Positions 2,862-4,990 of a stretch of DNA of 64,000 nucleotides are shown here, in pieces. The translations under genes and the position numbers were made by a program. A model generated the notes under the pieces. It did not search any database and was not told the origin of the DNA. It worked only from the letters and a program-made list of their open reading frames with translations. Every line of letters starts with the position of its first letter. Position 1 is the stretch's first letter. This DNA is from Thermodesulfovibrionales bacterium (lineage in GTDB: Bacteria; Nitrospirota; Thermodesulfovibrionia; Thermodesulfovibrionales; SM23-35), in the NCBI GenBank assembly GCA_963715195.1, contig CAVQRT010000007.1, forward strand, positions 379,657 to 443,656, written 5' to 3'.

Positions 2862-3308
2862 TCAGGATTTGAGCCTCAGTATTCTAAGAAGAATACCGAG
2901 ATATTTATTGAGCCAATTGCTTCTCTTAAGAAAAGGCAAGACGGGCGAGCTTCTGATGCCGAGTCTATGCAGTTCACCCGCAATTTCATCGTTCGGGCCA
3001 TACCTGAGCCCTTCCCGAAAACTTCGAATTGCTTCCTCCCGGTTCTTCATGAGAAGATAAATCCTCCCAAGATTGAGGTAGTGAACTGAATTCTCAGGTT
3101 CCTTGCGGAGGCTTTCTTCACACCATGCGATGCCCCTAGTCGTCAATCCGCGTTCTTTTGCAATGCAGAATGCCAGATAGGAACGCGCGGACGGGTTGTC
3201 TTCTCGTTCAGCCGCCCTCTCGAAGAAACCAAGTGCCAGGAGGGTATCGCCCTGCCTGAGCGCTTCCGTCCCATTCTTGATGAGGTCTATTCCTTCGCTC
3301 TCCGTCAT
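2862..3308 (-). CDS. Tetratricopeptide repeat protein
   Basis: TPR-like helices (HYLNLGRIYLLMKNREEAIRSFREGL). Confidence 0.8.
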   Translation of the reverse strand: MTESEGIDLIKNGTEALRQGDTLLALGFFERAAEREDNPSARSYLAFCIAKERGLTTRGIAWCEESLRKEPENSVHYLNLGRIYLLMKNREEAIRSFREGLRYGPNDEIAGELHRLGIRSSPVLPFLKRSNWLNKYLGILLRILRLKS

Positions 3309-3423
3309 ATATGATCTATATAATACCCGAAACCTGCTTCAAACTGCAGATATGTTTGCTCTGGTTTATTTTGAGATATGCTAAAATTACAAGAATGCCT
3401 GTTTTCAGCACAAAGAGCAGGAG

Positions 3424-4650
3424 GTGCATACTCTGATACGGTTTTATAATACCCTCGGAAAGAACCTTCAGACATTCCAGCCAGTGAGGAAACGCGTGGT
3501 GACCATATTCACCTGTGGTCCCTCCGTGTACCAAAAATCTCACATCGGCAACTTTAGAACATTCCTGTTCGAAGACATTCTCTCGCGCTATCTTGCCTAT
3601 GCCGGCTTTAAAGTCACGAGAGGCATGAATTTCACCGACATGGAAGATAAGGCAATCATCGAAGCGGCAAAGAAAAAGATTACGGTTCAACGCCTGACAG
3701 AGAACAATATAAAAGAGTTCCTCCGTACAATAAAACGCCTAAGGATGCAATTTCCCGACTATCTGCCGAGGGCCTCTGAACATGTTGATGCTGCGGTCGC
3801 ACTCATTCAAAAGCTGATCGAGCGGGGTATTGCTTATTGGCACAACGGAAATGTGTACTATAATCCGTTAACATTTCCGGGATTCGGGAAACTCTATGGT
3901 CTCGATATGTCCCGTTGGCCGTTACAGAGAAAAAGATTCCACAAGGATACCTATCCCGGCCTGCAATGGAATAAAGGGGATTTCATTCTCTGGCACGGAT
4001 ACAAAAATGGCGACACCTGTTACCGGGATACAGAGATCGGCAGGGGCCGTCCATCATGGAACATTCAGGATCCGGCCATGGTCAGTCACTGCTTCCATGA
4101 GACCCTCTCGATCTATTGCGGAGGGATAGACAACCTCTATCGTCACCATGACTACACAAAGGCAATCCTTGAATCAGTGAGACCCTACCCGATGGCAAAA
4201 TTCTGGCTTCACTGCAATCATTTATATGTGAACGGAGAGAAGATGTCGAAAAGCAAGGGCAATGTCATCCATGTTGATACGCTCATCAAGAGGGGTTTTA
4301 GCATGGATGAAATTCGGTTCTTTCTCATATACGGACATTACCGGCAGAAGCAGGACTACACGGACAGACTGATGAACCTGACGGCAATAAAACTGAGAAT
4401 ATTCAAGGAACTGGTTAAGAACATCAAAACAAAGGCCGGGCACAATTGGGATTCTGCTGACAGGGTTCAGGGAATGTTCAGAAGGACTTTTGCTGAACAT
4501 ATGGATAATGACTTGCACGTCCAGGATGCTTTTGATGGGTTATTGCAACTATTGTCCGATATAAAGCTTCATTCATTAACCCCGGCAACTGCGAAGGGGA
4601 TCATCAAGACCCTCAGAGAAATCGACAAAGTATTACAGGTTATTTTTTAA
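3424..4650 (+). CDS. Cysteine--tRNA ligase-like paralog (divergent, C-terminally short)
   Basis: YNTL, CGPSVY, HIGN, NFTD, PRASEH, GRPSW, KMSKSKGN and HYR motifs. Two Zn-ligand positions are altered; 408 aa. Confidence 0.85.
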   Translation: MHTLIRFYNTLGKNLQTFQPVRKRVVTIFTCGPSVYQKSHIGNFRTFLFEDILSRYLAYAGFKVTRGMNFTDMEDKAIIEAAKKKITVQRLTENNIKEFLRTIKRLRMQFPDYLPRASEHVDAAVALIQKLIERGIAYWHNGNVYYNPLTFPGFGKLYGLDMSRWPLQRKRFHKDTYPGLQWNKGDFILWHGYKNGDTCYRDTEIGRGRPSWNIQDPAMVSHCFHETLSIYCGGIDNLYRHHDYTKAILESVRPYPMAKFWLHCNHLYVNGEKMSKSKGNVIHVDTLIKRGFSMDEIRFFLIYGHYRQKQDYTDRLMNLTAIKLRIFKELVKNIKTKAGHNWDSADRVQGMFRRTFAEHMDNDLHVQDAFDGLLQLLSDIKLHSLTPATAKGIIKTLREIDKVLQVIF

Positions 4651-4990
4651 TCGAAAACAGGGGTTCCTGTATTGACTCACTGCGACAGACCGGACATTTC
4701 CCGGGTTTTTTGAGCCGGTCCCGTTTCCGGAAAATGAACTTGCATTTTCTGCATACTGCAGGGATAACGACAAAACTCCGGCCGCCTTTGCTTATTGTCT
4801 GTTGGATATGTTCAAGATGATCATAGACATCTTTTTCAGAAATGCCCGTCTCGACGGATAGCTCTTTTGCAGAAAGCGTATTCCCGTTCAGAATCGATGA
4901 GATTTTTTGGCGGACCGTCTCCTGGCATGCTACCGGAACTGAAGGCTCCAGGTTTTTTTTCTTTGCGTATTTACGCAGAAAGCGCTGCAT
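4640..4990 (-). CDS. HTH + Zn-ribbon transcriptional regulator
   Basis: HTH (LSAKELSVETGISEKDVYDHLEHI) plus CRKC...CPVC. Start uncertain. Confidence 0.8.
   Translation of the reverse strand: MQRFLRKYAKKKNLEPSVPVACQETVRQKISSILNGNTLSAKELSVETGISEKDVYDHLEHIQQTISKGGRSFVVIPAVCRKCKFIFRKRDRLKKPGKCPVCRSESIQEPLFSIKK

Follow-up and report, generated by a model that had tools for sequence, protein, structure and literature searches.

A conserved paralogue of cysteinyl-tRNA synthetase in anaerobes, with a rebuilt metal site and a recurrent MATE exporter neighbour

Within the 64,000-nucleotide stretch analysed here (the window) of a Thermodesulfovibrionales genome (GCA_963715195.1, contig CAVQRT010000007.1), an open reading frame at 3424..4650 (+) resembles cysteinyl-tRNA synthetase (CysRS), has no anticodon-binding domain, and is altered at the motifs that bind zinc. 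The question it raises is whether such a protein serves translation at all and, if not, what it ligates. Synthetase paralogues of known job are few, and for CysRS the accessible text of PMC9437257 lists MshC and CysRS* alone. No account of this family was found in the literature covered (including the accessible parts of PMC8762117, PMC5424206, and PMC9437257), which took in few subscription papers and main texts without supplements; CysRS alignments in the supplements to PMC5389517 and PMC5660078 could be relevant. The family is conserved and apparently unstudied, and belongs to oxygen-avoiding microbes.

The reading frame has 408 codons from a GTG at 3424, which sits within a Shine-Dalgarno-like AGGAGGT (3419-3425); a CTG at 3433 comes 7 nt after. 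The codon matching this CTG is ATG, TTG, or GTG in 70 of the 79 homologous loci scored, and a length of 405 aa is shared by 87 of 119 homologues. Because the GTG is buried in AGGAGGT and the homologues begin at the codon of the CTG, the protein probably starts at CTG (3433-3435) and has 405 aa, with the ribosome-binding motif, 7-nt spacer, and start codon spanning 3419..3435 (+). Residue numbers below nevertheless count from the GTG at 3424. The frame is not a chance one, given its PF01406 match in a profile search (E = 1.8e-72) and its TIGR00435 (cysS) score of 314 bits (313.9, below the curated cut-off of 340). An RNA-library contig of 192 nt matches 4096-4287 with one difference, which is no demonstration of transcription; three sequencing runs with small shares were returned by an expression look-up, and promoter and terminator scans around the gene were at chance level.

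The alignment with E. coli CysRS (1LI5 chain) reaches no further than residue 392 of that 461-residue protein, which leaves the paralogue without an anticodon domain, and no stand-alone anticodon-binding domain occurs in the genome, which argues against a split enzyme. The AlphaFold model (pLDDT 93.7, from a 120-row alignment) ends in helices at 346-360, 366-378, and 387-404; together with the E. coli alignment these mark a DALR-like C-terminal helical bundle (4363..4635, +), after which the protein stops. The preliminary description had the protein ending at 408 aa after a DALR-like helix: the absence of the anticodon domain and the terminal helices stand, while the length is probably 405 aa and Pfam DALR has no match at E<=0.001. 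In structure the model comes closest to CysRS chains (8qhp, TM 0.89), against TM 0.83 for MshC (3c8z).

The genome (97.8% complete) holds a full-length cysS on another contig (C36), with GRPGWHIEC, FPHHENE, and the anticodon domain, and the window's protein is 30% identical to it. The window's gene is therefore an accessory one and not the cell's working CysRS. A canonical-scoring cysS was likewise found in 20 of the 21 further carrier genomes checked (12/13, 4/4, and 4/4), the exception being G018, whose assembly is fragmented (about 280 contigs). The proposal that the gene is a CysRS paralogue, with a canonical cysS to be sought elsewhere, is borne out by these counts. In two genomes, a third CysRS-type match lies in frames of 782 and 816 aa (G419:C3:21076-21987 and G492:C1:4520558-4521469).

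Conservation was scored over the query and its 119 top homologues, with the window's own cluster (P0002) excluded. C31, G32, S34, Y36, H40, N43, T71, W212, N213, Q215, D216, R240, H241, H242, D243, Y244, H263, and KMSKS are invariant (120/120), and T245 is present in 112/120. At position 245, the window and 79 of 80 genome loci (one was dropped by a frame filter) read T in 48, S in 28, N in 3, and I in 1; since the position varies in this way, a ligand has been lost there and not replaced by a new one. With a median dN/dS of 0.17 across 72 pairs with dS<1.5, the pocket changes are under purifying selection. The proposed check on conservation of the D and T substitutions finds D216 invariant and position 245 mostly T or S; overall, the substitutions form family-wide motifs and are not random.

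These signatures occur in 17 of 150 representatives clustered at 50% identity. In a quick tree of 79 rows, unrooted and without MshC, the 14 family rows form a single group (SH-aLRT 100); the tree check called for earlier therefore identifies one clade among CysRS relatives, with MshC absent from the comparison. In the same tree the own cysS lies far away, and the family's neighbours are four CysRS-like, anticodon-less proteins (P0137, P0139, P0148, and P0158; 405-413 aa) whose pocket is near-canonical; they may represent further paralogue families or the ancestral condition. The arrangement suggests that the anticodon domain was lost before the pocket changed, the tree being unrooted.

Of 201 genomes of its own order, 40 gave a match to the paralogue and 161 gave none; a sample of 301 genomes of the phylum yielded it solely in this order (21 genomes). 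Among the best 80 of at least 595 matching stretches, the closest named homologues belong to Thermodesulfovibrionales, Nitrospiraceae, Syntrophales, and other delta-type anaerobes, with one from Chloroflexota and one from Leptospirales. Family members carry the database label 'cysteinyl-tRNA synthetase', and an Atlas search returned solely clusters named for CysRS and MshC. A plasmids collection yielded about 500 Klebsiella plasmid records with a gene annotated cysS at about 30% identity to the query, which were ruled out as family members by score; among the matches listed (60 rows in each of two listings) there was no MshC sequence. Two distant members (L147:2125-3411 and L148:242-1528) have two in-frame stop codons in common (TAA and TGA in L147), and a third (L149:5974-7220) is frameshifted, possibly by sequencing error; the gene can decay.

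The frequent loss of the gene, its breakage at those distant loci, and the lack of a canonical cysS in the fragmented G018 would fit a duplicate in decay, or an oddly shaped CysRS that serves the cell. Either is most improbable for the window's gene: the canonical cysS in its own genome, its distance from that gene in identity and in the tree, the low dN/dS, and the invariance of the new motifs largely refute this reading.

The motifs named in the preliminary description are present as claimed: HIGN (40-43) and the KMSKS ATP-binding loop (273-277; 4240..4254, +) are intact, GRPSWNIQD occupies residues 208-216, and YRHHDYT residues 239-245. H-x-G-N is also read by many full-length CysRS relatives, and HIGN is no novelty of the paralogue. 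In the 1LI5 alignment C31 corresponds to C28, D216 to C209, H241 to H234, and T245 to E238, which confirms that two of the four named Zn ligands are changed (C>D and E>T). Further changes relative to E. coli CysRS are H206>N, E208>Q, S210>P, H224>Y, P233>R, E236>D, and N237>Y, while C31, W212, H241, H242, and H263, equivalent to the C28/W205/H234/H235/H256 set of canonical CysRS, are kept. By comparison with E. coli CysRS and MshC, the C31-G-P-S-V-Y36 loop and HIGN (3514..3552, +) would provide the first Zn ligand, the amino-group binders, and a lid Tyr, and T71-D-M-E-D-K76 (3634..3651, +) an amino-binding Thr and the first Lys of KIIK, the second not being conserved. W212-N-I-Q-D216 (4057..4071, +) stands for the canonical WHIEC, with the Zn-ligand Cys209 become Asp, and R240-H-H-D-Y-T245 (4141..4158, +) for the canonical PHHENE, which in MshC is PHHEYS.

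Comparison with MshC is informative on the substrate. The MshC sequence PHHEYSAAHAES aligns with that of the paralogue RHHDYTKAILES. MshC binds Zn through C43, C231, and H256 together with the substrate thiol, and holds the amino group by G44, T46, and T83 beneath the Y48 lid (PMC9736012, accessible text). G44, T46, T83, and Y48 are all matched in the paralogue, by G32, S34, T71, and Y36, and the substrate is thus very likely an L-alpha-amino acid. The MshC HHEYS has Ser at the E238 position with Tyr before it, and 28 of 80 family members read HHDYS. Because MshC holds Zn with three residues while reading HHEYS, the E238>T change is no sign of a new substrate, and it is uninformative on the substrate side chain. 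The argument made earlier, that two of four changed ligands imply another substrate, is in this respect unsupported, as MshC activates cysteine with Ser at that position.

The single weighty pocket change is C209>D. In E. coli CysRS, Cys-to-Asp mutants (C28D and C28/209D) lose most of their translation activity and keep persulfide synthesis (PMC5660078, accessible text), and the single C209D impairs translation according to the available parts of two reviews (PMC10655014 and PMC7563103). WHIED together with an anticodon domain occurs in six full-length relatives (P0160, P0221, P0238, P0249, P0267, and P0270), which may not be their cells' only CysRS; five of the six cluster together in the tree. 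A changed substrate of the paralogue is possible. The same ligase and exporter module (the exporter is described below) might act on an oxidised or modified cysteine (sulfinate, sulfonate, or S-sulfo), homocysteine, or a hydroxy amino acid; its harder Cys/Asp/His site, with an Arg newly gained, would serve either disposal or the making of a new metabolite. We consider this somewhat unlikely. The invariance or near-invariance of N213, Q215, D216, R240, and D243, the weakened cysteine charging of C209D, the redox-defence neighbours, and the exporter partner speak for it; the MshC-like change at T245, the Asp at 209 in those six relatives (with the reservation on sole function), and the retention of C31, W212, H241, H242, and H263 speak against. 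R240 and Y244, moreover, presumably lie on the acceptor side and not at the pocket bottom, by an analogy with MetRS that we assume.

The mutant results also open a further reading, in which the protein is a dedicated, PLP-dependent cysteine persulfide (CysSSH) synthase, the natural counterpart of the Cys-to-Asp mutants, with MATE exporting excess persulfide species. Persulfide synthesis is retained in C28D and C28/209D (PMC5660078) and, per the review PMC10655014, in single C209D, each as given in the accessible text; of the lysines of KIIK and KMSK, K76 (equivalent to K73), K273, and K276 are present in 120/120; and the neighbouring genes include NifS/NifU, SufBD, thioredoxin, and peroxiredoxin. 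The second lysine of KIIK, required in E. coli, is however Lys in just 38/120 and Ile in the query, and the retained lysines double as ATP-site residues. An ATP-independent enzyme would have no need of an invariant HIGN, a ribose-binding Asp, or a rebuilt and conserved lid, and this reading is quite improbable.

The lid in question, W165-P-x-x-K/R-K/R-R-F-H-K-D-T-Y-P-G-x-x-W-N-x-G-D-F187 (3916..3984, +), lies in the connective peptide and is specific to the family. It replaces the small-residue loop, MSGA in CysRS, through which the first base pair of tRNA-Cys is recognised (PMC5389517, accessible text), with x-x-K-R in place of MSGA inside an aromatic, basic surround. The family is also basic overall: the median pI is 9.5 (119 proteins), against 6.1 for full-length relatives (n=108) and 5.6 for the first 395 residues of the own cysS.

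A basic protein with R45, R171, the HYR motif, and the helical bundle kept might act as an anticodon-blind tRNA ligase, charging tRNA-Cys or non-cognate tRNAs through the acceptor stem, like CysRS*, and perhaps maintaining or raising cysteine incorporation under oxidative stress. An anticodon-less CysRS variant did charge selC* tRNA in a reporter assay (PMC5389517, accessible text), and the nearest tree neighbours are anticodon-less proteins with a canonical pocket. Nonetheless, no dedicated tRNA accompanies the gene: ARAGORN, which may miss 8/4 tRNAs, finds neither tRNA-Cys nor tRNA-Sec in the 80 loci, and the own genome has one tRNA-Cys, one tRNA-Sec, and one selB above cut-off. Bulky basic residues replace the loop that reads the first base pair, the linkage to MATE would be left unexplained, and one carrier (G304, 98% complete) has no selA match. 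Taken together, tRNA charging of this kind is unlikely. A selenocysteine link through selA was set aside as uninformative, as selA occurs in 187 of 201 genomes.

Examination of the neighbourhood in homologues, as the preliminary description proposed, revealed that 46 of 80 loci have one orthologous MATE exporter directly upstream of the paralogue and in the same orientation, with a gap <=110 nt in 36 of the 44 measured. These exporters (50-93% identity among 42) score above the TIGR00797 cut-off, have Aq128 as the nearest solved chain, and are linked to the paralogue in Nitrospirota, Syntrophales-type, and Chloroflexota records. In the own order (201 genomes), with a threshold of E<1e-100 for MATE that removed two weaker matches, 32 have both genes, 8 the paralogue only, 6 MATE only, and 155 neither, and the two are adjacent in 28 of the 32; within the three main carrier families alone, the figures are 31, 8, 2, and 42. 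In the order of G419 (151 genomes; one 40%-identity match dropped), 17 have both, 6 the paralogue only, 9 MATE only, and 119 neither, with adjacency in 16 of 17. Related genomes are not independent, so these counts overstate the link; the pattern nevertheless recurs in two phyla, and the control genes phosphomutase (153/201) and selA do not track the paralogue. Evolutionary distances of paralogue and MATE correlate (r=0.78, 41 pairs), which is expected from shared ancestry and was not counted as support.

The link is not obligatory. MATE is missing at 34/80 loci, in 14/63 carrier genomes, the own genome included, and at 7/7 distant metagenome loci, and it occurs without the paralogue in 15 genomes. 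The own genome has no MATE orthologue (its one PF01554 match is weak, E=4.5e-9): MATE has been lost there, and the intact paralogue is an orphan. The homologues' MATE place is taken in the window by a divergent TPR gene (2862..3308, -), and on the other side lies a convergent PF0610-like gene (4640..4990, -), host synteny seen in 12/80 loci; neither is part of the system. Two genes from the paralogue is tyrS (1602-2816, -), which is not a recurring neighbour in 12 related loci. The seven distant metagenome loci are archaeal by their neighbours, and three have a peroxiredoxin directly upstream of the paralogue. No common replacement enzyme was found in the MATE-only genomes; in L150, L155, L157, and L158 the paralogue is simply absent between MATE and the next gene, and it is present in L166. 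In these relatives of G419 (L150-L158 and L166), MATE stands in a stress island with a ribosome hibernation factor, a CoA-binding protein, and an SRAP-type protein and, by look, a flavodiiron protein, superoxide dismutase, and copper ATPase.

Redox and Fe-S genes (thioredoxin, superoxide dismutase, rubrerythrin, peroxiredoxin, NifU, SufBD, TrxB, and flavodoxin) lie <=5 kb from the paralogue in 27/80 loci, against 3.5% of same-sized random windows of the own genome, a contrast inflated by the choice of markers from the same 80 loci and by a background of one genome; several unrelated arrangements contribute to the count. No acceptor-making enzyme is conserved beside the paralogue. The mycothiol and bacillithiol pathways were rejected, there being no MshA (TIGR03449) match at E<=1e-20 in the own genome and BshA matches below cut-off only. 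Two family-4-type glycosyltransferases and the genome's single PIG-L deacetylase lie together at G000:C31:1118-6175, an arrangement that suggests a surface-polysaccharide cluster, not a thiol pathway. A phosphomutase lies directly downstream of the paralogue in 8 to 9 loci; given its presence in most genomes of the order and its absence here, it was dismissed as host synteny. Three proteins without Pfam or NCBIfam match (L094:4527-5507, 327 aa; L101:6736-7800, 355 aa; and L117:9233-9460, 76 aa) each stand beside the paralogue in about three related loci.

From sequence and model together, the class I fold, the ATP motifs, the pocket for an L-alpha-amino group, and the thiol-stacking Trp are kept, the anticodon domain is lost, and the acceptor-side loop is rebuilt. 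The reading we favour, tentatively and short of even confidence, is an MshC-like ligase that acts on cysteine or a close thiol independently of tRNA and is coupled to export. We propose that the family arose from CysRS in its own right and works in the style of MshC. The metal would be bound by C31, D216, and H241, and this Cys/Asp/His site would activate cysteine, or a thiol amino acid close to it, as the adenylate; the aminoacyl group may then be transferred to a small, non-tRNA acceptor, probably anionic, under the rebuilt basic aromatic lid with R240 and Y244, and the partner MATE might export the product or its conjugates in the redox defence of anaerobes. Counting against this ligase, besides the missing acceptor-making enzyme and the loci without MATE, the high pI of the family also fits RNA binding, C209D impairs aminoacylation by E. 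coli CysRS, and H206N, E208Q, and S210P alter the metal shell. In its fuller form the proposal is a two-gene make-and-export module of strict anaerobes, in which the ligase builds a novel aminoacylated small molecule (a low-molecular-weight thiol or an oxidised-cysteine conjugate) that MATE exports for oxygen defence; this we regard as possible, though doubtful. The role outside ordinary translation suggested in the preliminary description is likely.

To our knowledge, the thiols of sulfate-reducer-type and syntrophic anaerobes are poorly known, and a thiol product, if such it is, would bear on oxygen buffering in these organisms. The family is a third one beside MshC and CysRS*, is widespread, and is a natural test of how Cys209-to-Asp affects cysteine selection; since its metal site is rebuilt and it has a transporter as specific partner, its substrate and product could be named by one enzyme test and one two-gene expression test. 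New here are the counts of ligase and MATE in two orders, set against control genes, the agreement with MshC at position E238, the parallel with the persulfide mutants, and the probable CTG start.

Compared with known systems, the paralogue resembles canonical CysRS (TIGR00435, PF01406; 8QHP, 1LI5/1U0B), at about 30% identity and nearest the H-x-G-N type, in its fold, ATP motifs, equivalents of C28/W205/H234/H235/H256 and of T68, and helical bundle. It differs in the missing anticodon domain, in WNxQD and RHHDY[T/S/N], in its rebuilt lid, basic character, and accessory status, and in having C31, D216, H241, and T245 where canonical CysRS has the Zn ligands Cys28, Cys209, His234, and Glu238. 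With MshC (TIGR03447; 3C8Z, 8HFM) it shares a length of about 410 aa, the lack of an anticodon domain and of a fourth Glu ligand, the Tyr and hydroxyl residue after HH, and the amino-group binders. MshC, however, retains both Zn cysteines and WHVEC, whereas the second Cys is Asp throughout the paralogue family. The paralogue scores 163.8 bits with TIGR03447 (cut-off 485.1), is less similar to MshC (114 bits) than to canonical CysRS (215 bits), and unlike MshC occurs in anaerobes, with a MATE partner and no MshA in its own genome. The persulfide synthase activity of CysRS (PMC5660078, accessible text) offers a likeness in the Cys-to-Asp change at the second Zn ligand and in the retention of three of four lysines; the paralogue does not conserve the second KIIK lysine, and elsewhere the activity is a side activity of full-length CysRS. 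CysRS* of Desulfobacterales (cysS*, selB*, selC*; PMC5389517, accessible text) is likewise a second, anticodon-less cysS copy with an altered CP1 loop in overlapping host phyla, from which the paralogue is set apart, by description, by its altered metal site, its MATE partner, and the absence of selC* or selB* beside it or in its own genome. The paralogue is neither MshC nor CysRS*; the family is likely a third, non-translational kind derived from CysRS that would work most like MshC.
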